In this document: positions 13,375 to 50,014 of the stretch, piece after piece
Numbering within the stretch: position 1 is the stretch's first letter
Layout of the letters: each line of letters starts with the position of its first letter
NCBI GenBank assembly: GCA_030390025.1
Contig: CM059440.1
Location: 52,452,001 to 52,516,000, forward strand
Source of the DNA: Squalus acanthias
Taxonomy: Eukaryota
DNA length: 64,000 nt
Reading direction: 5' to 3'
Position numbers and translations under genes: made by a program
The notes under the pieces: generated by a model
Databases searched by the model: none
Told to the model about the DNA's origin: nothing
Seen by the model: only the letters and a program-made list of their open reading frames with translations

Positions 13375-14390
<1,016 letters not shown>

Positions 14391-14774
14391 CTTGAAATAA
14401 AACTTTTTAAAAATCTCAAGCCACATTCCCACGGGGCACACGGAGATGGGCCAAAAAAAAGAGCTGAACTTGAGCTCTGTAATGTTATTTACTGTAAATA
14501 AAATGTCCAAATAAAAAAAATCATTGTATATCCTGATGAAAGTGACGATATCACTCTTGCACAAGTATAATATGCGTGTCCCTACATTACAAGAGTGGTT
14601 GCACTTCAAAAGTGCTTCATTGGATGAGGTTAAAAAAAAAACATTCTCTGATTGCGGGCTGAATCTTTTTTTTTAAATGTTGTAGATTGGGAGATGGACT
14701 TGCATTTCAACAGCACCTTTCATGACCTCAGGATGTCCCAAAGCGCTTTACAGCCAATGAAGTACTTTTTTGAA

Positions 14775-16912: not shown

Positions 16913-16967
16913 ATGGTGAGAAGTCTGCTCGCTGTTTTGGTGGCTGTTCAATTCAGTTTGGCTCAAG
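16913..16967 (+). CDS. Copy A exon 1 (signal peptide MVRSLLAVLVAVQFSLAQ)
   Basis: ATG in context aaagtATGg, hydrophobic leader, donor CAAG|GTAAGT; conserved in copies B and C. Confidence 0.85.
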
Positions 16968-19745
16968 GTAAGTCTTTAAATGTAAACAACAGAAAACGCT
17001 GGAAAAACTCAGCAGGCCAGGCAACATCCGTGGAGAGAGAAACAGTTAACGTTTCAGGTCGAAACCCTTCGTCAGAGTCTTTAAATGTAACTGTGTACTT
17101 GCACACATTAGAATGAACGATCTACACAGTTTCAGGTGGTCTTTTCACCATTTAGCAATGGCCCAAAGCAATAACAGTAGTTTCACTTGTAATGTTGGGT
17201 CATTTTAATGGGCAAGGTGGATAATTCCCAAGTAAGCATTGTTCATGGAGCTGAAAAGAGTATTTCAAAGAAACAGCTCCGTCTATTTTGTGATGTTTAC
17301 TGGTCATGTTGCTGCAGATGCTGCAGTACTTTTTTATGTCCATTTGCTGAGGTGAGATGAGGGAACCAAACTTTCTATTTCAGTAGATCACAGGAAATAT
17401 CAACCCAGGAAACAACTCTTCAGGGGAAGAGAGAAAATGCAGAAGTGGGGATAATTACTTCTTAGTGCTTTCCTGTCTTCAAGATTAAATCACTTGCAAC
17501 AATGTTGTTACTAATCTATTTGTTTTAATTCACAGCTCAGTTTCAAGTCCACACCCCAGAAGCACCAGTGACTGCTATCTACGGTCAGTACACGGTGCTG
17601 AGTTGCAGCTTTACAGCTCAGGGTGAATCATCACTGGATCGGCTGTTCATCAATTGGCACCGTGTCGAGACGGAGGAAGTTGTTTATAAATATTATTCTG
17701 GAAAAGAGCAACTGAGTCGCCAAAGCCCTCGGTATTCGGGGAGGACAAGCTTATTCCCAGAGGAGTTAAAACAAGGGAACGTTTCAGTGAAGCTAGACAG
17801 AGTGAGACCAGAGGATGCTGGACAGTATGTGTGCTTAGTTAGTAACGGAAAAGGAAATGGCCAGGGCATTGTGTCTCTAATATTTGCAGGTACATGCTTC
17901 TTTCAGTTTTCATTTTTGTTCTCAGTCAGTTCTGAAAAATTAAAGTCATGCTTCTTGGCCTCCCCTGATGGCTCAGTGAGTCTCACTATTGAGTGCCTGA
18001 GCCATACAGACCAGGTTTGATGCCCAGACTCTGCTGGTTTAGCTCCTCTCCGCTGGAGCAGTGCTATTGGTGCAATCGACACACCTCGGTTAGGGTTGGC
18101 AATCCCGTTTGCTATTCAGCAAGCCCTGTCTGGATGGCTCCAGGATCGGGCTGAACTGTGATGGCCTCGCAGGTGAAAAGCCCACTGATATTTACCATCA
18201 AGGGTTACGTATGATTTTGGCTGAACAGCTGCCAGCAGGATATTTATTGTGGGATTTTCACCTTCAACTTGATCACTTGGTACAATGATTTGAATATCTC
18301 CAAATTGATCACAAACAGCAATATCTACTATTCTGTTTGTACTTGGATTTGTTGTTTTTGAGCATTTAAAGCTTTTATTGCATTATTCAATTAGTTATTA
18401 ACTGGAACAAAATTCCTAGTTGGCATTATTTTTATCAAGTTTATTTCTTGTTTCTAATGACCCTTTTGTAAAATCTACAGCATACTACAAGGAACCTGAC
18501 TTTTTTATCCAATTAACACCATCCGGGACAGTGTTCAGATTCGAGTCCCAAGGTTACCCTGAGGCTACTGTTTCCTGGTACAATGAAGAAAATGAAGATA
18601 TTTCCACACTGTCTGAGACTTCGTACCAACAAAGTGGAGATGGTCTATACTCCCTGCAGAGTATTCTGCAAATCAGTGACACCAATAGGAGTGCGAACTA
18701 CACATTCAGATTAAGAAATGATGTTCTACACCAATCAGTTTCTCGAACATTTGGTCTTTCTGTAGGTAAGTTGTGTCCTACACTCAGTACTCATAACCTC
18801 CAGTTGTCTTGTGATACAATGCTGAATCACGACATCTTGATCTCCATGCCATTTGAAGTAAAGGAAATCTTCTTTCAGTTCTTCAGAAACTTCTGTTCCA
18901 GTCTCTGGTTCCACAAGTATAAACCGCTGCACCTTTTTTAACTTTCATGGGCCGACACTTCTTGACTTATCAATGTTCTTGGCCTCACTATCTCCCAAGA
19001 CCACAAATGGAGCTGCTGCATTGCTCGGCTGCTCAAAAGCTGTTTCCTCGTTTGTGCCAAACTTCTTACCAAATACCTTTAACTCTCTATAGCTCGAGTC
19101 CTTTTGTGACTTGGATACTGCTCCCATATTTGCGAAGACTCTCCTTAATGTCTCCCTCGCACCTTGGAGAGGATATAAGAAGTTTTCTCTCTATGCTGTA
19201 TTGTACCCTCCACGCTATGTAAACTTCAGCTCATCCAAAACCCTGCTGCCCTTCTCCTATCCTGCACTATGATCTGCTAACCCTGTCCCTGTGCTCGCTG
19301 GCCTACATTAGCTCCTGGTTACCAACGCCTCAAATTAAAAATTCTTATCCTTGTGGTTAAGTCCCTTCATGGCCTGATCCCTCCTAATCTCTCTGTACCC
19401 TTCTCTAGCCCTACAACCCTCTGAGAACTCTGCATTGCTCCAACTCTGGCATCTTGTGAATTCCCTACTGCCATCGCCCTGCCACTGGCAGCCATCTATA
19501 GCTTGCGCTCCAGAAGTGTGTGTGTGTGTGTGTGTGTGTGTGCGCTGAAACCACTGCTGTAATGATCAATAGTTTTTTTCCCCACAGAAATGAAAACTGA
19601 TCACGTTCTTACAAGAAATCGCTGGATGCTTGCAGTCACTCTCCTTGCTATTGAATTTATAATTTTAATTCTAGTCATAGCCGTGTGCAAGAAACTTGTT
19701 TCACTGGCAAATGGAGAGAAACAAAATGAACACGGCATTACGTGA
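16913..19745 (+). CDS. B7-family (CD276/B7-H3-like) type I membrane protein, copy A, 283 aa; join(16913-16967,17536-17889,18481-18765,19588-19745)
   Basis: Four phase-1 exons with GT-AG sites give one open frame of 852 nt: signal peptide, IgV (C..W..RTSLF..GNVSVKL..DAGQYVC), IgC with GYPEATVSW, TM, short tail; AATAAA 20016-20021. Confidence 0.9.
16986..17075 (-). mobile_element. 90-bp Penelope-like terminal fragment with hammerhead core, in intron 1 of copy A
   Basis: 15-bp TSD agtctttaaatgtaa (16971-16985, 17076-17090); empty site in copies B and C; matches 43120-43213; minus strand CTGACGA-agggtttcgacct-GAAAC. Confidence 0.85.
17536..17889 (+). CDS. Copy A exon 2 (IgV)
   Basis: cacag| acceptor, GCAG|GTAC donor, 354 nt, canonical IgV Cys-Trp-DxGxYxC. 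Confidence 0.93.
18481..18765 (+). CDS. Copy A exon 3 (IgC-like, cysteine-free)
   Basis: ctacag| acceptor, GTAG|GTAAGT donor, 285 nt; YYKEP...GYPEATVSW...GLYSLQSIL...NYTFRLRNDVLHQ. Confidence 0.92.
19588..19745 (+). CDS. Copy A exon 4 (TM + tail: EMKTDHVLTRNRWMLAVTLLAIEFIILILVIAVCKKLVSLANGEKQNEHGIT*)
   Basis: tttttttccccacag| acceptor, hydrophobic stretch then CKK stop-transfer, TGA 19743-19745. Confidence 0.88.
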
Positions 19746-30000: not shown

Positions 30001-30560
30001 ATTTATTCCACAACTAGCTCATTTTTTATGGTGAAGCCTACCCCATGGAGGCGGCATTCTTCTTCAGGTTTGCCTTTCCAGAAGAAGGTGTAACCACCGC
30101 CTTGCTCCTTGAGCTGGCCTTCCCCTGCCCGCCGGGTCTCGCTTAGGGTTGTGATGTCTATGTCGAAACATCTGAGCTCCCAGATAACGATAGCAGTACG
30201 GCGTTCTGGTCTGTCGCTGTTGGGGTTGTCCATGAGGGTCCTGACGTTCCAGGTCCCGAACTTCATTTTAAAGGGTGGAAGATGCCTGTGCGTGAATTGT
30301 TTTAACGTGGGGTGGTCATTGCACACCACCAACACACGGGCTTGACAGAGAAAGGTCTTGGTCCAATGGCAAGGGGATCCAAGACGATTGGAGACCAGGC
30401 TCTGCTACATCGGCCTAGCACACACACACAAACATACTCCTACTGTCCTCCTCCCTCCTTCCCTCAGGTCCTCTCTACCTGGGTTTCATAGGCTGCAGTG
30501 TGGTTCTCCCGACCCCGCTTCTGGTCCAAGCTGCGCCACTCCTGGGCCTCGACCTCGCCC
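27046..30560 (-). mobile_element. RTE-clade LINE, near full length, few frameshifts
   Basis: EN ORFs 30003-30335 and 28723-29991, RT ORF 27295-28683 (462 aa, LQYADD), (GAA)n-like 3' tail at 27046-27055. Confidence 0.95.
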
Positions 30561-30785
30561 CTGGGCCTCGTCCTCGCTCCTGGGCCCCGTCCTCACTCCT
30601 GGGCCTCGTCCTCGCTCCTCAGCCTCAACCTCACTCCTGGGCCCCATCCTCACTCCTGGGCCTCGTCCTCGCTCCTCAGCCTCAACCTCACTCCTGGGCC
30701 CCATCCTCACTCCTGGGCCTTGTCCTCGCTCCTGGGTCCCGTCCTCACTCCTGGGCCTCGACCTCGCTCTTGGGTCCCGACCTCC
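30540..30785. repeat. Degenerate GC-rich tandem repeat (cctc.ctcctgggcc-based) at the RTE 5' end
   Basis: Repeated cctcactcctgggcc / cctcgctcctgggcc units; the first units are also present at 5800-5840 in the other RTE copy. Confidence 0.8.
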
Positions 30786-30793
30786 TTATAGCA

Positions 30794-31742
30794 TGTCTCC
30801 TTCCAGTGAGTGTGTCCCGCGGAGTGTCTCCTTCCAGTGAGTGTGTCCCGCGGAGTGTCTCCTTCCAGTGAGTGTGTCCCGCGGTGTGTCTCCTTCCAGT
30901 GAGTGTGTCCGCGATGTGTCTCCTTCCAGTGAGTGTGTCCCGCGGTGTCTCCTTCCAGTGAGTGGGTCCCGCGGTGTCTCCTTCCAGTGAGTGTGTCCCG
31001 CGGTGTCTCCTTCCAGTGAGTGTGTCCCGCGGTGTCTCCTTCCAGTGAGTGTGTCCCGCGGTGTCTCCTTCCAGTGAGTGTGTCCCGCGGTGTGTCTCCT
31101 CCCAGTGAGTGTGTCCCGCGGTGTCTCCTTCCAGTGAGTGTGTCCCGCGGTGTGTCTCCTCCCAGTGAGTGTGTCCCGCGGTGTCTCCTTCCAGTGTGTG
31201 TGTCCCGCGGTGTGTCTCCTTCCAGTGAGTGTGTCCCGCGGTGTGTCTCCTCCCAGTGAGTGTGTCCCGCGGTGTCTCCTTCCAGTGAGTGTGTCCCGCA
31301 GTGTCTCCTTCCAGTGAGTGTGTCCCGCGGTGTCTCCTTCCAGTGAGTGTGTCCCGCAGTGTGTCTCCTTCCAGTGAGTGTGTCCCGCGGTGTGTCTCCT
31401 TCCAGTGAGTGTGTCCCGCGGTGTCTCCTTCCAGTGAGTGTGTCCCGCGGTGTCTCCTTCCAGTGAGTGTGTCCCGCGGTGTCTCCTTCCAGTGAGTGTG
31501 TCCCGCGGTGTCTCCTTCCAGTGAGTGTGTCCCGCGGTGTCTCCTTCCAGTGAGTGTGTCCCGCGGTGTGTCTTCTTCCAGTGAGTGTGTCCCGCGGTGT
31601 CTCCTTCCAGTGAGTGTGTCCCGCGGTGTCTCCTTCCAGTGAGTGTGTCCCGCGGTGTCTCCTTCCAGTGAGTGTGTCCCACGGTGTCTCCTTCCAGTGA
31701 GTGTGTCCCGCGGTGTCTCCTTCCAGTGAGTGTATCCCGTGG
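30794..31742. repeat. Minisatellite, ~32 copies of gtgtctccttccagtgagtgtgtcccgcg (29 bp; 31-bp variant with extra gt)
   Basis: Head-to-tail, almost identical units visible directly; no spacers. Confidence 0.97.
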
Positions 31743-32278
31743 TGGCTAGACGCTACGATAAGTATGGCCAACCAAGGCAGAGCGGTTAGCAGCAAAGCCG
31801 ACACAATGTTGAATTATACAGCCCAAAAATGGTAGAATATAATTAAAATTTATAGTGCCTTTGTTCACCCAAACCTTGAATACTGCATCCCATTCTGGTC
31901 ACCCAGAAACAAGAGACAGCCAAATGCTGAAGGCGGTGTAGAGAAGAGCCACAAGACTGATTCTCAGGTGTCAGGGCTCTGAACTGAGGGGAAAGACTGG
32001 GTTTTTTCCCCACCAAGAAAGAGGCAGCTGAAAGATGATCTTATAGAGGCATATAGATTGCTACAGGTATAGAAAAAGTTAACCCAGAATGTGACTTTAA
32101 ATTAAGTTGCCGAAGTAGATCTAGAGGACACAGGTTCAGGCTAGTAAAAGGTAGTTTTAGGACAGGTATCAGGAAATTCATCTTCACACAGTGATCAACA
32201 TGTAGAATAAACTTCCAGAGAAAGTGGAGGCAAAAAACCTAGAATCACTAAACAATTGGATGGTACAATGGAAGTTGC

Positions 32279-36289: not shown

Positions 36290-36447
36290 TCACGAAATGC
36301 AGTGTTCATTTTGTTTCTCTCCATTTGCCAGTGAAACACGTTTCTTGCACACGGCTATGACTAGAATTACAATTATAAATGCAATAGCAAGGACAGTGAC
36401 TGCAAGCATCCAGCGATTTCTTGTAAGAACGTGATCAGTTTTCATTT
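36290..36447 (-). CDS. Copy B exon 4 (TM + tail)
   Basis: ORF 36290-36478: EMKTDHVLTRNRWMLAVTVLAIAFIIVILVIAVCKKRVSLANGEKQNEHCIS*. Confidence 0.88.
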
Positions 36448-39400
36448 CTGTGAAGAAAGGAAGAAAACTATTGATCATTACGGCAGTGGTTTCAGTGCTG
36501 GTTTGGTCTTCTATGCTAATACAGTTTAAAATACAATTACATTCTTAAATGTGGTTGTATGGTGAAAGTATTTTTAAATGTTGGAGAACACAGTAGTAGC
36601 CTAAACCAGAAACAAAGTGCATTGATATAGCACCTTTAATGTAGAAAAACATCCCAAGGTGCTTCACAGTAGCGTAATCAGCCAAAAAAAACACGTATTT
36701 ATACAGCACCTTTCACAACCCCAAAGCGCTTTACAGCCAATGAGGTACTACACTGTTGTAATGCAGGAAACGTGGCAGTCAATTTGTGCACAACAAGCTC
36801 CCACAAACAGTAATTAGATAATGACCAGATAATCTGGTGTTTTTTTTTCAAAAAGTGATGTTGGTTGAAGGATAATAATGATCAGGACACCGGGGAGAAC
36901 TCCCCTGCTCTTCGTAATAGTGCCATGGGATCTTTTACGTCCACCTGAGAGAGCAGACGGTGCCTCGGTTTAACGTCTCATCCGAAAGGCGGCACCTCCG
37001 ACAGTGCAGCACTCCCTCAGCACAGTGCTGGAGTGTCAGCCTAGATTTTTGTGCTCAAGTCTCGAGTTGGGCTTCAACCCACAACATTCTCCTACCTGAT
37101 GCAAGGCTGACACCTAAAAAGAGAGATATTAGAAGGGGTGACTAAAAGCTTGGTCAAAGAGGTGGATTTTAAGGAAAGTTTTAAAAAAGGGAGGAGAAAA
37201 GAGAGAGGTTTAGGGAGGGAATTCTGGAGCGCAAGCTATAGATGGCTGCCAGTGGCAGGGCGATGGCAGTAGGGAATTCACAAGATGCCAGAGTTGGAGC
37301 AATGCAGAGGTCTCAGAGGGTTGTAGGGCTAGAGAAGGGTACAGAGAGATTAGGAGGGACGAGGCCATGAAGGGTCTTAACCACAAGGATAAGAATTTTT
37401 AATTTGAGGCGTTGGTAGCCAGGAGCTAATGTAGGCCAGCGAGCACAGGGGGAGGGTTAGCAGATCATAGTGCAGGATAGGAGAAGGGCAGCAGGGTTTT
37501 GGATGAGCAGAAGTTTACATAGCGTGGAGGGTACAATACAGCATAGAGAGAGAACTTCTTATATCCTCTCCAAGGAGCGAGGGAGACATTAAGGAGAGTC
37601 TTCGCAAATATGGGAGCAGAATCCAAGTCACAAAAGGACTCGAGCTATAGAGAGTTAAAGGTATTTGGTAAGAAGTGTTGGGCACAAACGAGGAAACAGC
37701 TTTTGAGCAGCCGAGCAATGCAGCAGCTCCATTTGTGGTCTTGGGAGATAGTGAGGCCAAGAACATTGATAAGTCAAGAGAAGTGCAGGCCCATGAAAGT
37801 TAAAAAGGTGCAGCGGTTTATACTTGTGGAACCAGAAAGAAACTGGAACAGAAGTTTCTGAAGAACTGAAAGAAGATTTCCTTTACTTCAAATGGCATGG
37901 AGATCAAGATGTCGTGATTCAGCATTGTATCGCAAGACAACTGGAGGTTATGAGTACTGAGTGTAGGACACAACTTACCTACAGAAAGACCAAATGTTCG
38001 AGAAACTGATTGGTGTAGAACATCATTTCTTAATCTGAATGTGTAGTTCGAACTCCTGTTGGTGTCATTGATTTGCAGAATACTCTGCAGGGAGTATAGA
38101 CCATCTCCACTTTGTTGGTACGTAGTCTCAGACAGTGTAGAAATATCCTCATTTTCTTCATTGTACCAGGAAACAGTAGCCTCAGGGTAACCTTGGGACT
38201 CGAATCTGAACACTGTCCCGGATGGTGTTAACTGAATAAAAAAGTCAGGTTCCTTGTAGTATGCTGTAGATTTTACAAAAGGGTCATTAGAAACAAGAAA
38301 TAAACTTGATAAAAATGCCAACTTGGAATTTTGTTCCAGTTAATAACTAATTGAATATTGCAATAAAAGCTTTAAATGCTCAAAAACAACAAATCCAAGT
38401 ACAAACAGAATAGTAGATATTGCTGTTTGTGATCAATTTGGAGATATTCAAATCATTGTACCAAATGATCAAGTTGAAGGTGAAAATCCCACAATATCCT
38501 GCTGGCAGCTGTTCAGCCAAAATCATACGTAACCCTTGATGGTAAATATCAGTGGGCTTTTCACCTGTGAGGCCATCACAGTTCAGCCTGATCCTGGAGC
38601 CGTCCACAGGCAGGGCTTGCTGAATAGCAAATGGGAGTGCCAACCCTAACCGAGGTGTGTCGATTGCACCAATAGCACTGCTCCAGCGGAGAGGAGTTAA
38701 ACCAGCACATTCTGGACATCAAACATGGTCTGTACGGCTCAGGCACTCAATGGTGAGACTCACTGAGCCATCAGGGGAGGCCAAGAAGCATGACTTTAAT
38801 TTGCAGCACTGAGAACAAAAATGAAAACTGAAAGAAGCATGTACCTGCAAATATTAGAGACACAATGCCCTGGCCACTTCCTTTTGCATTCCTGACTAAG
38901 CACACATACTGTCCAGCATCCTCTGGTCTCACTCTGTCCAGCTTCACTGAAACGTTCCCTTGTTTTAACTCCTCTGGGAATAAGCTTGTCCTCCCCGAAT
39001 ACCGAGGGCTTTGGCGACTCAGTTGCTCTTTTCCAGAATAATAATAAACAACTTCCTCTGTCTCGACACGGTGCCAACTGATGAACAGCAGATCCAGTGA
39101 CGATTCACCCTGAGCTGTAAAGCTGCAACTCAGCACCGTGTACTGGCCGTAGACAGCAGTCACTGGTGCTTCTGGGGTGTGGACTTGAAACTGAGCTGTG
39201 AATTCAAACAAATAGATTAGTAACAGCATTGTTCCAAGAGATTTAATCTTAACTCTTCAGAATATTTTATTTTAAAAGGATGATAATACGAGATTTAATC
39301 TTGAACACAGGAAAGCACTAAGTAGTAATTATCCCCACAGCTGCATTTTCACTTCTCCAGAATGGTTGATATTTCCTGCTTTGATATTTTCTGTGATGTA

Positions 39401-41345
39401 TTGAAATAGAAAAAGTTTTGTTCCCTCACCTCACAAAATGGACATCAAAAAAAGTAACTGCAGCAACAGGATCAGTAAACATCACAAAATAATGGGACTA
39501 AAAGACAACAGGTCCCCTGGACCAGATGGCCTGCATCCCAGGGTCTTAAAAGAAGTGGCTGCAGAGATAGTGGATGTATTGGTTGCAATCTACCAAAATT
39601 CCCTGGACTCTGGAGAGGTCCCAGCGGATTGGAAAACCGCAAATGTAACACCCCTATTTAAGAAAGGAGGGAGACAGAAAGTACGAAACTATAGACCAGT
39701 TAGCTTAACATCTGTCGTTGGGAAAATGCTGGAGTCCTTCATGAAGGAAGCAATAGCAGGGCATTTGGAAAATCAATGCAGTCAAGCAGAGTCAGCATGG
39801 TTTTATGAAAGGGAAATCATGTTTAACAAATTTGCTGGAGTTCTTTGAGGATGTAACGAGCAGGATGGATAAGGGTGAGCCAGTGGATGTGGTGTATTTG
39901 GATTTCCAGAAGGCATTCGATAAGGTGCCACATAAAAGGTTACTGCATAAGATAAGAGTTCACGGAGCTGGGGGTAATATATTAGCATGGATAGAGAATT
40001 GGTTAATTAACAGAATACAGACAGTCAGGATAAATGGGTCATTTTCCGGTTGGCAAACGGTAACTAGTGGGGTGCCACAGGAATCAGTGCTGGGGCCTCA
40101 ACTATTTACAATCTACATTAATGACTTGGATGAAGGGACCGAGTGTAATGTAGCTAAGTTTGCAGATGATACAAAGATGGGTGGGAAAGCAAGTTGTGCA
40201 GAGGACTCAAAGAATCTGCAAAGGGATATAGACAGGCTAAGTGAGTGGGCAAACATTTGGCAGATGGAGTATAATGTGGGAAAGTGCAAGGTTATCCACT
40301 TTGGCAGGAAAAATAAAAAAGCAAATTATTTTTTAAATGTAGAGATTACAAAATGCTACAGTTCAGAGGGACCTGGGGGTCCTTGTGCATGAAACACAAA
40401 AAGTTAGCATGCAGGTGCAGCAAGTAATCAAAAAGGCAAATGGAATGTTGGCCTTTATTGCAAGGGGGTTGGAGTATAAAAGCAGGGAAGTCCTGCTCCA
40501 ACTGTACAGGGTATTGGTGAGACTACACCTTGAGTACTGCATACAGTTTTGGTCTTCTTATTTAAGGAAGGATATACTTGCATTGGAGGCAGTTCAGAGA
40601 CGATTCACACAGTTGATTCCAGAGATGAGGGGGTTGACTTATGAAGAAAGGTTGAGGAGGTTGGGCCTATACTCATTGGAATTTAGATGAATGAGAGGTG
40701 ATCTTATTGAAACATATAAGATACTGAGGGGACGCGACAAGGTAGACGCAGAGAGGATGTTTCCCCTCGTGGGGAAATCTAGAACTCGGGCATAGTTTCA
40801 GAATAAAGGGTCGCCCTTTTAGAACTGAGATGAGGAGGCATTTCCTCTCAGAGGGTCGTAAATCTCTGGAATTCTCTGCCCCAGAGAGCCGTGGAGGCTG
40901 GGTCATTAAATACATTTAAGGTGGAGATAGACAGATTTTTACAAGATAAGAGAGTGAAGGGTTAAGGGAAGTGGCTTTGAGCCCAAGATCAGCCATGATC
41001 TTATTGAATGGCGGAGCAGGCGCGAGGGGCCAAGTGGCCTATTCCTGCTCCCATTTCTTATGTTCTTATGTAAATAGACAGGGGCTATTTCTTTGAAATA
41101 TTATTTTCAGCTCCATGAACAATGTTTACTTGGGAATTATCCATCTTGCCCATTAAAATGACCCAACATTACAAGTGAAACTACTGTTACTGCTTTGGGC
41201 CATTGCTCAATGGTGAAAAGACCACCTCAAACTGCGTAGATCATTCATTCAAATGTGTGCAAGGACACACAGTTACAGTTAAAGACTTACCTTGAGCCAA
41301 ACTGAATTGAACAGCCACCAAAACAGCGAGCAGACTTCTCAGCAT
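36290..41345 (-). CDS. B7-family (CD276-like) copy B, 282 aa; complement(join(41291-41345,38845-39195,37979-38263,36290-36447))
   Basis: Four phase-1 GT-AG exons, 849-nt open frame; leader MLRSLLAVLVAVQFSLAQ; TM WMLAVTVLAIAFIIVILVIAVC; AATAAA at 36011-36016 (-). Confidence 0.9.
37979..38263 (-). CDS. Copy B exon 3 (IgC-like, cysteine-free)
   Basis: 285 nt, splice sites as in copy A. Confidence 0.92.
38845..39195 (-). CDS. Copy B exon 2 (IgV)
   Basis: 351 nt, splice sites as in copy A, one codon shorter. Confidence 0.93.
39489..41071 (+). mobile_element. CR1 LINE (5'-truncated) in intron 1 of copy B
   Basis: SPGPDGLHPRVLKE, YLDFQKAFDKVPH, KFADDTK; (tcttatgt) tail; same insertion as 45408-46990, absent in copy A. 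Confidence 0.93.
41291..41345 (-). CDS. Copy B exon 1 (signal peptide)
   Basis: 55 nt, donor CAAG|GTAAGT. Confidence 0.85.
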
Positions 41346-42247: not shown

Positions 42248-42290
42248 ATGGTGAGAAGTCTGCTCGCTGTTGGATTCAGTTTGGCTCAAG
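42248..42290 (+). CDS. Copy C exon 1 (shortened signal peptide)
   Basis: 43 nt, 12-nt in-frame deletion vs A/B, donor CAAG|GTAAGT. Confidence 0.78.
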
Positions 42291-45200: not shown

Positions 45201-48200
45201 AGCAACCAGAAAGAGTAACCTGCAGTTACCTGGCACCAACGATACCATAATAAGATACCATAATCTTGGTCACTGCGCTCGGTCCCAGTCTTGAATGGTT
45301 TCACTTGTAATGTTGGGTCATTTTAATGGGCAAGATGGATAACTCCCAAGTAAATATTGTTCATGGAGCTGAAAATAATATTTCAAAGAAACGGCCCCTG
45401 TCTATTTACATAAGAACATAAGAAATAGGAGCAGGAATAGGCCACTTGGCCCATCGAGCCTGCTCTGCCATTCAATAAGATCATGGCTGATCTTGGGCTC
45501 AAAGCCACTTCCCCGCCCGCTCCCCATAACCCTTCACTCCCTTATTTTGTAAAAATCTGTCTATCTCCACCTTAAATGTATTTAATGACCCAGCCTCTAC
45601 GGCTCTCTGGGGCAGAGAATTCCACAAATTTATGACCCTCAGAGAAGAAATTCCTCCTCATCTCAGTTCTAAAAGGGTGACCCTTTATTCTGAAACTATG
45701 CCCCTGAGTTCTAGATTTCCCCATGAGGGGAAACATCCTCTCTTAATCCACCTTGTCGAGCCCTCTCAGTATCTTGTATGCTTCAATAAGATCACCTCTC
45801 ATTCATCTAAATTCCAATGAGTATAGGCCAAACCTCCTCAACCTTTCTTCAAAAGTCAACCCCCTCATCTCTGGAATCAACTGTGTGAATCGTCTCTGAA
45901 CTGCCTCCAATGCAAGTATATCCTTCCTTAAATAAGGAGACCAAAACTGTATGCAGTACTCAAGGTGTGGTCTCACCAATACCCTGTACAGTGGTAGCAG
46001 GACTTCCCTGCTTTTATACTCCAACCCCCTTGCAATAAAGGCCAACATTCCATTTGCCTTTTTGATTACTTGCTGCACCTGCATGCTAACTTTTTGTGTT
46101 TCATGCACAAGGACCCCCAGGTCCCTCTGAACTGTAGCATTTCGTAAAATCTCTCCATTTAAAAAATAATTTGCTTTTTTATTTTTCCTTGCACTTTCCC
46201 ACATTATACTCCATCTGCCAAATGTTTGCCCACTCACTTAGCCTGTCTATGTCCCTTTGTAGATCTTTAAGTCCTCTGCACAACTTGCTTTCCCACCCAT
46301 CTTTGTATCATCTGCAAACTTGGCTACAGTACACTCGGTCCCTTCATCCAAGTCATTAATGTAGACTGTAAATAGCTGAGGCCCCAGCACCGATCCCTGT
46401 GGCACCCCACTAGTTACCGTTTGCCAACCGGGAAATGACCCATTTATCCCGACTCTCTGTTTTCTGTTAGTTAACTAATTCTCTATCCATGCTAATATAT
46501 TACCCCCAACTCCGTGAGCTCTTATCTTATGCAGTAACCTTTTATGTGGCACCTTATTGAATGCCTTCTGGAAATCCAAATACACCACATCCACTGGCTC
46601 ACCCTTCTCCACCCTGCTCGTTACATCCTCAAAGAACTCCAGCAAATTTGTTAAACATGATTTCCCTTTCATAAAACCATGCTGACTCTGCTTGACTGCA
46701 TTATGATTTTCCCAATACCCTGCTAATGCTTCCTTAATGAAGGAATCCAGCATTTTCCCAATGACAGATGTTAGGCTAACTGGTCTATAGTTTCCTGCTT
46801 TCTGTCTCCCTCCTTTCTTAAATAGGGGTGTTACATTTGCGGTTTTCCAATCCGCTGGGACCGCTCCAGAGTCCAGGGAATTTTGGTAGATTGCAACCAA
46901 TGCATCCACTATCTCTGCAGCCACTTCTTTTAAGACCCTGGGATGCAGGCCATCTGGTCCAGGGGACCTGTTGTCTTTTAGTCCCATTAATTTGTGGTGT
47001 TTACTGATCATGTTGCTGCAGTTACTTTTTTTGATGTCCATTTTGTGAGGTGAGGGAACAAAACATTTTCTATTTCAATAGATCACAGAAAATATCAAAG
47101 CAGGAAATATCAACCATTCAGGAGAAGAGAAAGTACAACTGTGGGGATAATTACTACTTAGTGCTTTCCTGTGTTCAAGATTAAATCTCGTATTAATCAT
47201 CCTTTTAAAATAAAATATTTTGAAGAGTTAAGATTAAATCTCTTGGAACAATGCTGTTACTAATCTATTTGTTTGAATTCACAGCTCAGTTTCAAGTCCA
47301 CACCCCAGAAGCACCAGTGACTGCTATCTACGGCCAGTACACGGTGCTGAGTTGCAGCTTTACAGCTCAGGGTGAATCATCACTGTATCTGCTGTTCATC
47401 AGTTGGCACCGTGTCGAGACGGAGGAAGTTGTTTATTATTATTCTGGAAAAGAGCAACTGAGTCGCCAAAGCCCTCGGTATTCGGGGAGGACAAGCTTAT
47501 TCCCAGAGGAGTTAAAACAAGGGAACGTTTCAGTGAAGCTGGACAGAGTGAGACCAGAGGATGCTGGACAGTACCTGTGCTTAGTCAGTAACGCAAAAGG
47601 AAGTGGCCAGGGCATTGTGTCTCTAATATTTGCAGGTACATGCTTCTTTCAGTTTTCATTTTTGTTCTGTCAGTGCTGCAAAATTAAAGTCATGCTTCTT
47701 GGCCTCCCCTGATGGCTCAGTGAGTCTCACCATTGAGTGCCTGAGCCATACAGACCAGGTTTGATGCCCAGACTGTGCTGGTTTAGCTCCTCTCCGCTGG
47801 AGCAGTGCTATTGGTGCAATCGACACACCTCGGTTAGGGTTGGCACTCCCGTTTGCTATTCAGCAAGCCCTGCCTGTGGACGGCTCCAGGATCGGGCTGA
47901 ACTGTGATGGCCTCGCAGGTGAAAAGCCCACTGATATTTACCATCAAGGGTTACGTATGATTTTGGCTGAACAGCTGCCAGCAGGATATTGTGGGATTTT
48001 CACCTTCAACTTGATCACTTGGTATAATGATTTGAATATCTCTAAATTGATCACAAACAGCAATATCTACTATTCTGTTTGTACTTGGATTTGTTGTTTT
48101 TGAGCATTTAAAGCTTTTATTGCAATTTTCAATTCGTTATTAACTGGAACAAAATTCCTAGTTGGCATTATTTTTATCAAGTTTATTTCTTGTTTCTAAT

Positions 48201-50014
48201 GACCCTTTTTAAAAAATCTACAGCATACTACAAGGAACTGACTTTTTTTATCCAGTTAACACCATCCGGGACAGTGTTCAGATTCGAGTCCCAAGGTTAC
48301 CCTGAGGCTACTGTTTCCTGGTACAATGAAGATATTTCCACACTGTCTGAGACTTCGTACCAACAAAGTGGAGATGGTCTATACTCCCTGCAGAGTATTC
48401 TGCAAATCAGTGACACCAATAGGAGTTCTAACTACACATTCAGATTAAGAAATGATGTTCTACATCAATCAGTTTCTCGAACATTTGGTCTTTCTGTAGG
48501 TAAGTTGTGTCCTACACTCAGTACTCATAACCTCCAGTTGTCTTGCGATACAATGCTGAATCACGACATCTTGATCTCCATGCCATTTGAAGTAAAGGAA
48601 ATCTTCTTTCAGTTCTTCAGAAACTTCTGTTCCAGTCTCTGGTTCCACAAGTATAAACCACTGCACCTTTTTAACTTTCATGGCCCTACACTTCTTGACT
48701 TATCAATGTTCTTGGCCTCACTATCTCCCAAGACCACAAATGGAGCTGCTGCATTGCTCGGCTGCTCAAAAGCTGTTTCCTCGTTTGTGCCAAACACTTC
48801 TTACCAAATACCTTTAACTCTCTATAGCTCGAGCCCTTTTGTGACTTGGATACAGCTCCCATATTTGGGAAGACTCTCCTTAATGTCTCCCTCACTCCTT
48901 GGAGAGGATATAAGAAGTTTTCTCTCTATGCTGTATTGTACCCTCCACGCTATGTAAACTTCAGCTCATCCAAAACTCTGCTGCCCTTCTCCTATCCTGC
49001 ACTACAATCTGCTAACCCTCCCCCTGTGCTCGCTGGCCTACATTAGCACCTGGTTACCAACACCTCAAATTTAAAATTCTTATCCTTGTGGTTAAGTCCC
49101 TTTGTGGCCTCGTCCCTCCTAATCTCTCTCTACCCTTCTCTAGCCCTACAACCCTCTGAGAACTCTGCATTGCTCCAACTCTGGCATCTTGTGAATTCCC
49201 TACTGCCATCGCCCTGCCACTGGCAGCCATCTATAGCTTGCGCTCCAGAATTCCCTCCCTAAACCTCTCTCTCTCTCTCTCTCTCTCTCTCCTTTTTTAA
49301 AACTTTCCTTAAAATCCACCTCTTTGACCAAGCTTTTAGTCACCCCTTCTAATATCTCTCTTTAGGTGTCAGCCATGCATCAGGTGGGAGAAGGTTGTGG
49401 GTTCAAGCCCAACTCCAGAGACTTGAGCACAAAAATCTAGGCTGACACTCCAGCACAATACTGAGGGAGTGCTGCACTGTCGGAGGTGCCGCCTTTCAGA
49501 TGAGACGTTAAACAGGTGGACGTAAAAGATCCCATGGCACTATTATGAAGAACAGGGGAGTTCTCCCTGGTGTCCTGACTATTATTATCCTTCAACCAAC
49601 ATCACTTTAAAAAAAAAAAAAAAAAAAAATTATTATCTGGTCATTATCTAATTACTGTTTGTGGGAGCTTGCTGTGTGCAAATTGTGCTGCTGCGTTTCC
49701 TGCATGACAACAGTGACCACTTAAAGTACTTCATTGGCTGTAAAGCACTTTGGGGTTGTGAAAGGCGCTGTGTAAATGTGTGGGCTTTTTTTGGCTGATT
49801 TAGCATAGAAGACCAAACCAGCACTGAAACCACTGCCGTAATGATCAATAGTTTTCTTCCCTTTTTTTCCACAGAAATGAAAACTGATCACGTTCTTACA
49901 AGAAATCGCTGGATGCTTGCAGTCACTGTCCTTGCTATTGAATTTATAATTTTAATTCTAGTCATAGCCATGTGCAAGAAACGTGTTTCACTGGCAAATG
50001 GAGAAACAAAATGA
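42248..50014 (+). CDS. B7-family (CD276-like) copy C, 269 aa; join(42248-42290,47285-47635,48224-48499,49875-50014)
   Basis: 810-nt open frame. Shortened leader MVRSLLAVGFSLAQ, 3-aa deletion in IgC, tail truncated at NGETK*; AATAAA 50300-50305. May be decaying. Confidence 0.8.
42433..43102 (-). mobile_element. Solo LTR, 670 bp
   Basis: TG...CA ends (tgattgtaa / ttacttca), 5-bp TSD tgctg (42428-42432, 43103-43107), minus-strand TATAA (~42608-42612) and AATAAA (42527-42532). Confidence 0.85.
43181..43217 (-). ncRNA. Minimal type I hammerhead ribozyme motif in the Penelope-like terminal repeat
   Basis: AGUU-CUGAUGA-AGGGUCCCAGACCU-GAAAC-GUU-AACU: intact core, stem I AGUU/AACU, stem II, palindromic ACGU in place of stem III. 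Activity untested. Confidence 0.7.
43358..44101. mobile_element. Harbinger-like MITE family 1, second copy, nested in the Penelope element
   Basis: Same TIRs as 904-1645, 3-bp TSD aaa (43355-43357, 44102-44104). Confidence 0.87.
45408..46990 (-). mobile_element. CR1 LINE in intron 1 of copy C (same insertion as 39489-41071)
   Basis: ORFs 46475-47041 and 45803-46237; identical junctions. Confidence 0.93.
47285..47635 (+). CDS. Copy C exon 2 (IgV)
   Basis: 351 nt, conserved splice sites. Confidence 0.92.
48224..48499 (+). CDS. Copy C exon 3 (IgC-like, cysteine-free)
   Basis: 276 nt, conserved splice sites. Confidence 0.9.
49875..50014 (+). CDS. Copy C exon 4 (TM + tail: EMKTDHVLTRNRWMLAVTVLAIEFIILILVIAMCKKRVSLANGETK*)
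   Basis: ccacag| acceptor; TGA 50012-50014 after a 2-nt deletion. Confidence 0.86.

Follow-up and report, generated by a model that had tools for sequence, protein, structure and literature searches.

A B7 lineage of jawed fishes, related to CD276 but distinct from it, whose IgC domain probably folds without the B-F disulfide

Introduction

Proteins of the B7 family usually have a canonical disulfide between strands B and F of their constant-type immunoglobulin domain (IgC), and they bind CD28-family or related receptors through the GFC face of their variable-type domain (IgV) and modulate lymphocytes. The closest described relative of the gene studied here is CD276 (B7-H3), whose human (9ly5, 9lme) and mouse (4i0k) structures are the best Protein Data Bank sequence matches for both of its domains. 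CD276 shares the order of IgV, IgC and transmembrane segment and is the nearest named group in our trees, but it keeps both IgC cysteines, also in its shark orthologue, and has a longer A-B loop. The gene lies in a 64,000-nucleotide stretch of the Squalus acanthias genome (GCA_030390025.1, contig CM059440.1, positions 52,452,001 to 52,516,000), here called the window, which holds three copies of it. A first-pass annotation had pointed out that its IgC exon has phenylalanine where the two disulfide cysteines are expected. In our reading, which we hold to be probable, this exon encodes the IgC domain next to the membrane in a functional type-I protein, the protein belongs to an ancient B7 lineage related to CD276 but not orthologous to it, and the domain folds without the B-F bond.

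Results

Phenylalanine at both disulfide sites of the IgC exon

The IgC exon of copy 1 (18481-18765) is bounded by AG and GT, is phase-1 at both ends and encodes 94 residues, none of them a cysteine. The lack of cysteine is in itself unremarkable, as its probability in 94 random residues is about 0.15 at a cysteine content of 2%; what exceeds chance is its absence from the two canonical sites, both of which are occupied by cysteine in 26 of the 27 B7/butyrophilin (BTN)-type domains outside the family listed by the IgC profile search described below. The F-strand site is unambiguous, Phe75 falling on the second cysteine of human and mouse CD276 without gaps. At the B-strand site, comparison with CD276 alone leaves an ambiguity of one residue because the B-C loop of CD276 is one residue longer, and an ungapped phmmer alignment sets Arg19 opposite the cysteine. 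Phe20 falls on the cysteine without gaps in a profile alignment with bovine BTN1A1 and in an alignment with a cysteine-bearing paralogue of the same genome, which we take to be PD-L1-like, and the family profile aligns Phe20 with the CD276 cysteine. Arg19 was ruled out as the cysteine equivalent, since both the profile and the comparisons with other B7/BTN domains point to Phe20. The IgC exons of copies 2 and 3 have Phe codons identical to those of copy 1 (TTC); as the three copies are recent duplicates with 95-97% identical DNA, they count as one observation and not as three independent ones. Both the absence of cysteine and the placement of Phe at the two sites in all three copies, as first annotated, are borne out by the codons and by the profile alignment that had been proposed as a check. 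The gene therefore lacks a usual B7 trait, which we treat as a variant and not as exclusion from the family because the trees described below place it among B7 proteins.

The rest of the gene has the architecture of the extended B7 family: a leader, an IgV domain, an IgC domain, a transmembrane segment and a short tail, encoded by phase-1 exons and forming a type-I protein. The canonical IgV cysteines (C23 and C99) are present and presumably form a disulfide. The best Protein Data Bank match of the copy 1 IgV is CD276, the copy 1 IgC has two N-glycan sequons (N68 and N72), and the tail ends about 20 residues past the membrane helix without a tyrosine motif. All three copies have open frames and GT..AG splice sites.

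AlphaFold predicts a domain of seven strands for the IgC exon (predicted local distance difference test, pLDDT, 94.1), with Phe20 in strand 15-24, Trp32 in strand 29-33 and Phe75 in strand 71-79; these strand positions suggest that the two Phe side chains are buried against the core Trp. Foldseek gave B7-H3 as the best match of the model (TM score 0.84), and the model superimposes on the IgC domains of BTN1A1, B7-H3, PD-L1, ICOSL and CD80 with Z scores of 13.2-14.0 and root-mean-square deviations of 1.4-2.2 Å over 86-92 residues. The predicted fold is that of a B7-type IgC, and in sequence as in fold the protein is closest to B7/BTN ectodomains.

Distribution of the cysteine-less state and the residues that fill the sites

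The cysteine-less IgC is not special to the window locus or to S. acanthias. Cysteine-less members occur in sharks, rays, chimaera, bichir, sturgeon, paddlefish, gar, bowfin, many teleosts (among them the 'Zgc:153911' protein, P0126), lungfish and coelacanth, and the B-site cysteine is missing from a truncated caecilian protein; relatives such as those that the earlier annotation had proposed to seek in other fish are thus present in cartilaginous, ray-finned and lobe-finned fishes. Among 161 proteins with both IgV and IgC domains (V+C), a set drawn from searches seeded with the cysteine-less family itself, 129 have neither cysteine, 28 have both, and four have a cysteine beside the B site and none at the F site. 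When 1.84 billion proteins were searched with the IgC profile, considering multi-domain matches from 38 bits per domain upward, 62 domains scored at least 67 bits and all lacked the cysteine pair, while 26 of the 27 domains at or below 59 bits had both cysteines. No cysteine-less amniote member was found among the named matches (12 of 61 high-scoring representatives were looked up, nine of them named), a sample that does not establish absence from birds and mammals. ESM Atlas look-ups returned generic B7 clusters only, at the level of phylum.

The residues that take the place of the cysteines vary. Of the 129 cysteine-less relatives, 108 have Phe at the F site, where Val and Ala are also seen; at the B site, where a few calls are off by one in the 161-protein alignment, Phe (44), Tyr (39) and Leu (32) predominate. 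The C-strand Trp is retained in 128 of 129, and the combination of two Phe residues is found in 44. The earlier proposal of a selected, aromatic-packed core therefore stands as regards selection of the loss but not as regards a specific need for Phe at both sites. Judged from these sequences, the requirement appears to be hydrophobic filling, and Phe/Phe is the version of the window's sub-lineage. A natural single-cysteine state was also observed, in the IgC domain (residues 284-359) of P0228, a butyrophilin-like protein of Hemiscyllium, which has Cys at the B site and Tyr at the F site.

Phylogenetic position and the turtle proteins

The S. acanthias genome (G000) contains 50 matches to the IgC exon in five paralogue groups: A (the window type), B (about 65-70%), C (C16:67.2 Mb), D (C2339) and E (C502). 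In an IgV-only tree, which carries no information on the IgC cysteines, all 51 cysteine-less rows grouped with four turtle rows (Shimodaira-Hasegawa-like approximate likelihood ratio test, SH-aLRT, 90). The V+C trees, made with the cysteine columns removed, recovered the group of cysteine-less and turtle proteins with support of 99/97 (hidden Markov model (HMM) alignment, 71 rows) and 85/83 (MAFFT alignment, a 46-row subset); four long-branch rows were excluded from the HMM-alignment V+C tree, the IgC-only tree and the first approximately unbiased (AU) tests. Nested in this group is the window subclade of sharks, lungfish and ray-finned fishes, all cysteine-less (100/99 and 99/99). It includes P0126, which does not imply one-to-one orthology. 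The teleost group has several paralogues. For lgmn and pcnx1, the neighbours of zebrafish zgc:153911, family matches lie on C1, C9 and C27 and none on C16, where the window cluster is located.

CD276 forms a separate clade (100/99) that includes the shark's own CD276, a gene with both IgC cysteines at G000:C19:55.5 Mb. The window gene was rejected as a CD276 orthologue: AU tests gave p = 0.0002 for its grouping with shark CD276 and p = 0.03 for a grouping of the window subclade with CD276, and it has neither the two IgC cysteines, nor the long A-B loop, nor the position in the tree of such an orthologue. Butyrophilins are likewise a separate clade in the V+C trees, outside which the window gene falls. 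These results agree with the suggestion, made from the window alone, of a distinct B7 subfamily, in the sense of a lineage separate from CD276.

The turtle 'CD276-like' proteins (P0064-P0067, P0069-P0071, P0073-P0075 and P0079) have both canonical IgC cysteines wherever they were aligned. They can be explained by a single loss of the disulfide followed by regain of the cysteine pair in the turtle (amniote) branch. In neither V+C analysis did any of 200 bootstrap trees unite the cysteine-less rows as a clade of their own, and a grouping of the turtles with lungfish, coelacanth and shark group E received 95/80 and 91/85. In the IgC-only tree the turtles join the coelacanth (SH-aLRT 80, weak) and not CD276; lungfish and coelacanth have Tyr at the B site and Phe at the F site, each one base from Cys. 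However, the turtle branch is long, the AU tests reject neither a position of the turtles outside the cysteine-less clade (p = 0.238 and 0.387) nor one with CD276 (p = 0.0998), and exon replacement from a cysteine-bearing paralogue offers another route to the same state. We therefore entertain regain as a tentative possibility.

Parallel losses would account for the same nesting of both-cysteine turtle proteins if the disulfide of the group's ancestor survived in turtles and disappeared independently in the shark, ray-finned, lungfish, coelacanth and amphibian branches once the core had grown tolerant. The B-site residue differs between branches (Phe, Tyr, Leu, Val and Met), and Cys is turned into Phe or Tyr by one base change. 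Against this, 26 of 28 cysteine-less rows of the 46-row tree, from all branches, have Phe at the F site, for which one event is the simpler account, and the window subclade is wholly cysteine-less at 99/99, so its loss is old in any case. We consider parallel losses unlikely. On the sequences compared here, the turtle cysteine pair may reflect regain, parallel loss elsewhere or misplacement of the turtle proteins.

A relocated cysteine pair in group D

Group D, the P0010 type of sharks and rays (L022:4649-4939, minus strand, which is G000:C2339:640 kb), has Leu and Val or Ala at the canonical sites and two new cysteines, one at position +2 from the C-strand Trp and one immediately ahead of the F strand. 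The P0010 ectodomain model has B7-H3 and PD-L1 as its best matches and places the new cysteines, Cys181 and Cys218, where the ends of strands 176-181 and 219-226 lie side by side; the new C-F pair is thus likely a replacement disulfide. The relocated pair is confined to one clade and so is one event.

It could be argued that the Phe pair is more than a tolerated filling and has a special function, as in a stalk that is insensitive to redox state or mechanically extensible, or in a dimer surface. Jawed fishes have kept the cysteine-less state throughout, even though a single base substitution would restore each Cys, the A-B hairpin is about five residues shorter than that of CD276, and a Gln/Arg pair in the G strand is conserved. 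A special function is nevertheless improbable, as the residues filling the sites vary widely, one paralogue group has gained another cysteine pair and the turtles carry the canonical one.

Genomic copies, selection and splicing

Phe occupies both sites in 31 of 31 group A copies examined, and the V and C exons are both open in 14 of them. Among the 13 distinct IgC exons of these 14 copies, the ratio of nonsynonymous to synonymous differences per site (pN/pS) was 0.29 (0.0177/0.0610), and IgC identity among nine shark proteins was 80-87%. Some group A copies are possibly haplotype duplicates, the same stop codon being found in four of them. Clusters at C4:43.4-43.9 Mb and on C3806, C3598 and C794 are near-identical to the C16 cluster and share its inactivating stops, and may be segmental duplications or uncollapsed haplotypes.

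Splicing was examined in contigs from four public runs of two studies, none of which is recorded as RNA, so that their RNA status is a guess; the contigs are 95-98% alike and hence derive from close copies or alleles. GT..AG introns were bridged by contigs between leader and V exons in three runs, between V and C exons in four and between C and transmembrane exons in three. In the IgC contigs of runs X1 and X2 every difference was accounted for and the Phe codons were untouched. The IgC exon was spliced in at a depth of 64-131 in all four runs, compared with 21.8 for its skipping in one. The skipping joint, in run X3, is in frame and leads from the V exon to the transmembrane exon (17889 to 19588), omitting the IgC exon; short IgC-less isoforms are also found in databases for Pristiophorus (P0036) and Mobula (P0051).

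Decay, in which the exon would come from a degenerate pseudogene family, is highly improbable, for although many genomic copies have stops or frameshifts and one run skips the exon, the window copies are all open with intact splice sites, the pN/pS and the identity across sharks point to constraint, the exon is mostly included, and bony fishes share the same cysteine-less state. The view that the loss was selected and did not arise by decay, already put forward in the first-pass annotation, is upheld by purifying selection, splicing, a confident fold and conservation across jawed fishes.

Variation on the IgV face

Of the outward GFC-face sites, 8 of 10 vary in at least two of the 14 open copies; the corresponding figures are 1 of 10 for the BED face and 1 of 11 for the core (Fisher p = 0.0055 for GFC versus BED). 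The GFC-face pN was 0.176, 3.0 times the all-site pS, a value reached by 0 of 20,000 random sets of 10 sites. Many group A IgV exons are also short of one codon in the C' strand. Because the sites were picked post hoc and conversion between copies is ignored, we regard the GFC-face variation as a lead only.

Coordinates of the copies and neighbouring sequence

Table 1. Exons and key codons of the three gene copies in the window (positions count from the first letter of the window)
Feature	Position	Strand	Description and basis
Copy 1 leader exon	16913..16967	+	18-residue signal peptide, phase-1 donor; ATG and GT; leader-V joint GT..AG in contigs
Copy 1 IgV exon	17536..17889	+	C23, C99 and Trp40 kept; Pfam V-set 2.8e-12; splice joints in contigs
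Copy 1 IgC exon, Cys-free	18481..18765	+	Pfam C2-set_3 (a B7/butyrophilin-type IgC) 1.4e-7; spliced both sides
Phe20 (TTC), B-strand Cys site	18540..18542	+	Profile and paralogue alignments
Trp32 (TGG), C-strand core Trp, retained	18576..18578	+	Translation
Tyr73 (TAC)	18699..18701	+	Codon read
Phe75 (TTC), F-strand Cys site	18705..18707	+	phmmer, profile and paralogue alignments
Copy 1 stalk, transmembrane helix and short Tyr-free tail (coding part of last exon)	19588..19745	+	Translation; C-exon joint in contigs
Copy 2 leader exon	41291..41345	-	Sequence read
Copy 2 IgV exon	38845..39195	-	C' strand one codon shorter; sequence read, translation
Copy 2 IgC exon, Phe/Phe	37979..38263	-	Open frame; alignment of copies, translation
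Copy 2 transmembrane/tail exon (coding part)	36290..36447	-	Sequence read, translation
Copy 3 leader exon	42248..42290	+	12 nt shorter, in frame; head-to-head with copy 2; sequence read
Copy 3 IgV exon	47285..47635	+	Sequence read, translation
Copy 3 IgC exon, Phe/Phe	48224..48499	+	9-nt in-frame deletion in C-D loop; copy alignment, translation
Copy 3 transmembrane/tail exon	49875..50014	+	Frame shifted, tail shorter; translation

Besides its 9-nt deletion, the copy 3 IgC exon has, close to its start, a 1-nt deletion offset by a 1-nt insertion. The contigs have a 2-nt deletion at window position 19714 that would yield a short tail of the copy 3 kind. Copies 2 and 3 sit inside a large inverted duplication (36676-41181 versus 45298-49800), and their start codons (41345 and 42248) lie about 900 bp apart, so that a shared promoter is possible. 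A 5'-truncated ferritin retrocopy (14111-14400; Pfam Ferritin 1.4e-9), interrupted by a stop codon and carrying an A-rich tail, is found about 2.5 kb upstream of copy 1, and a tandem array with units of about 29-31 bp occupies 30537-31744, beside repeat-like sequence. Elsewhere in the genome, G000:C26:0-7.6 Mb contains a dense array of B7/BTN-type IgV exons with about 30 matches, of which two sampled exons group with butyrophilins.

Discussion

The results point to an old B7 lineage in which loss of the B-F disulfide of the IgC domain would date to about the time when cartilaginous and bony fishes diverged, or to before it. The gap beside the core Trp would be filled by bulky hydrophobic residues (Phe in the window; Tyr, Leu, Val or Met in other members), so that the domain could fold without the bond. 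By analogy with B7-family anatomy, the IgC domain would serve as a rigid spacer that lifts the IgV domain, whose GFC face would bind a receptor on a second cell. As the tail has no tyrosine motif, the most likely role of the protein is that of a ligand, and its most likely partner is predicted to be a CD28-family or similar IgV receptor. One sub-lineage has multiplied by birth and death to about 30 near-identical copies in this genome, the IgC domain of the expanded copies remaining under purifying selection while the outward GFC residues of the IgV domain vary. Extra CD28-family members (CD28X and CD28H-like) have been described in fishes, and the CD28 family mainly binds B7 proteins (PMC11599192); that members of the present lineage may pair with these receptors is speculation.

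Several observations weigh against this reading. Only 53 of the 129 cysteine-less relatives retain the Tyr that lies two residues ahead of the F site, and the alignment behind the AlphaFold model had 55 rows, four of them with Cys. The both-cysteine turtle proteins nest within the group, so the cysteine-less state is no clean clade marker, and the data neither demonstrate nor reject a single origin of the loss (the AU p values of 0.238 and 0.387 given above). Within group A, 17 of 31 copies were not scored open in both exons, about three of them possibly alignment-edge artefacts. The GFC site set was chosen after the variation had been seen, and gene conversion and haplotype duplicates inflate the pairwise counts. 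Lastly, the only functional datum comes from no immune assay: in PMC9950062, a zebrafish zgc:153911 F0 knockout was scored as a negative regulator of retinal pigment epithelium regeneration in a screen.

A bolder account would combine all of these elements in an undescribed core B7 lineage with one early loss of the IgC disulfide, a new C/F-strand bond in an elasmobranch paralogue, regain in turtles, a role as ligands of some of the extra fish CD28-family receptors (CD28X, CD28H-like) and positive selection on the receptor-binding face of the 30 copies. We think it doubtful that every part of it holds. A core B7 lineage with a cysteine-less IgC was not seen in mammals among the proteins compared here. 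We found no description of such a lineage in the literature on fish B7 proteins, zgc:153911 and disulfide-free Ig domains, a search that leaves aside the main surveys of B7 evolution, which may describe it; one supplement of an elephant shark paper gave no match to B7 terms.

If our reading is correct, many fish 'CD276-like' annotations cover members of an old B7 lineage distinct from CD276, with the cysteine-less IgC as its recognition mark, and naming this lineage would correct the annotation and supply candidate ligands for the additional CD28-family receptors of fish. Loss of the disulfide will not by itself surprise Ig specialists. A single scaffold with Phe, Tyr, Leu and Val fillings, a relocated cysteine pair and possibly a regained canonical pair is a natural experiment on the Ig disulfide.

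Compared with known systems, the window gene is set apart from shark CD276 by an IgC identity of only 25%. The fish 'CD276 antigen-like' proteins, including the zgc:153911 group, belong to the same family, with a cysteine-less IgC and an aromatic motif in the IgV C' strand, but their names are automatic only, and the closest relatives of the window gene are elasmobranch-specific paralogues. Where zgc:153911 is mentioned in the passages of PMC9950062 and PMC13601605 available to us, it is cited as a screen hit or a neighbouring gene and its domains are not described. PD-L1, ICOSL, CD80 and butyrophilins share the fold of the window IgC (Z 13-14), and in the PD-L1-like paralogue the B site and the Gly-Tyr-Pro motif are spaced as in the window IgC; the PD-L1/butyrophilin-type domains compared residue by residue keep the B-F cysteines, at identities of 15-27%, and butyrophilins have a cytoplasmic B30.2 domain that is absent from the window gene. 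A disulfide-free Ig fold is itself not new, since Ig domains of CD4 and LAG-3 have lost the canonical B-F cysteine pair, with a replacement disulfide from strand B to strand G in LAG-3 (PMC10768021). CD4 and LAG-3 belong to another family, and their losses are described in that article as species-specific, whereas the loss reported here spans a whole B7 lineage.

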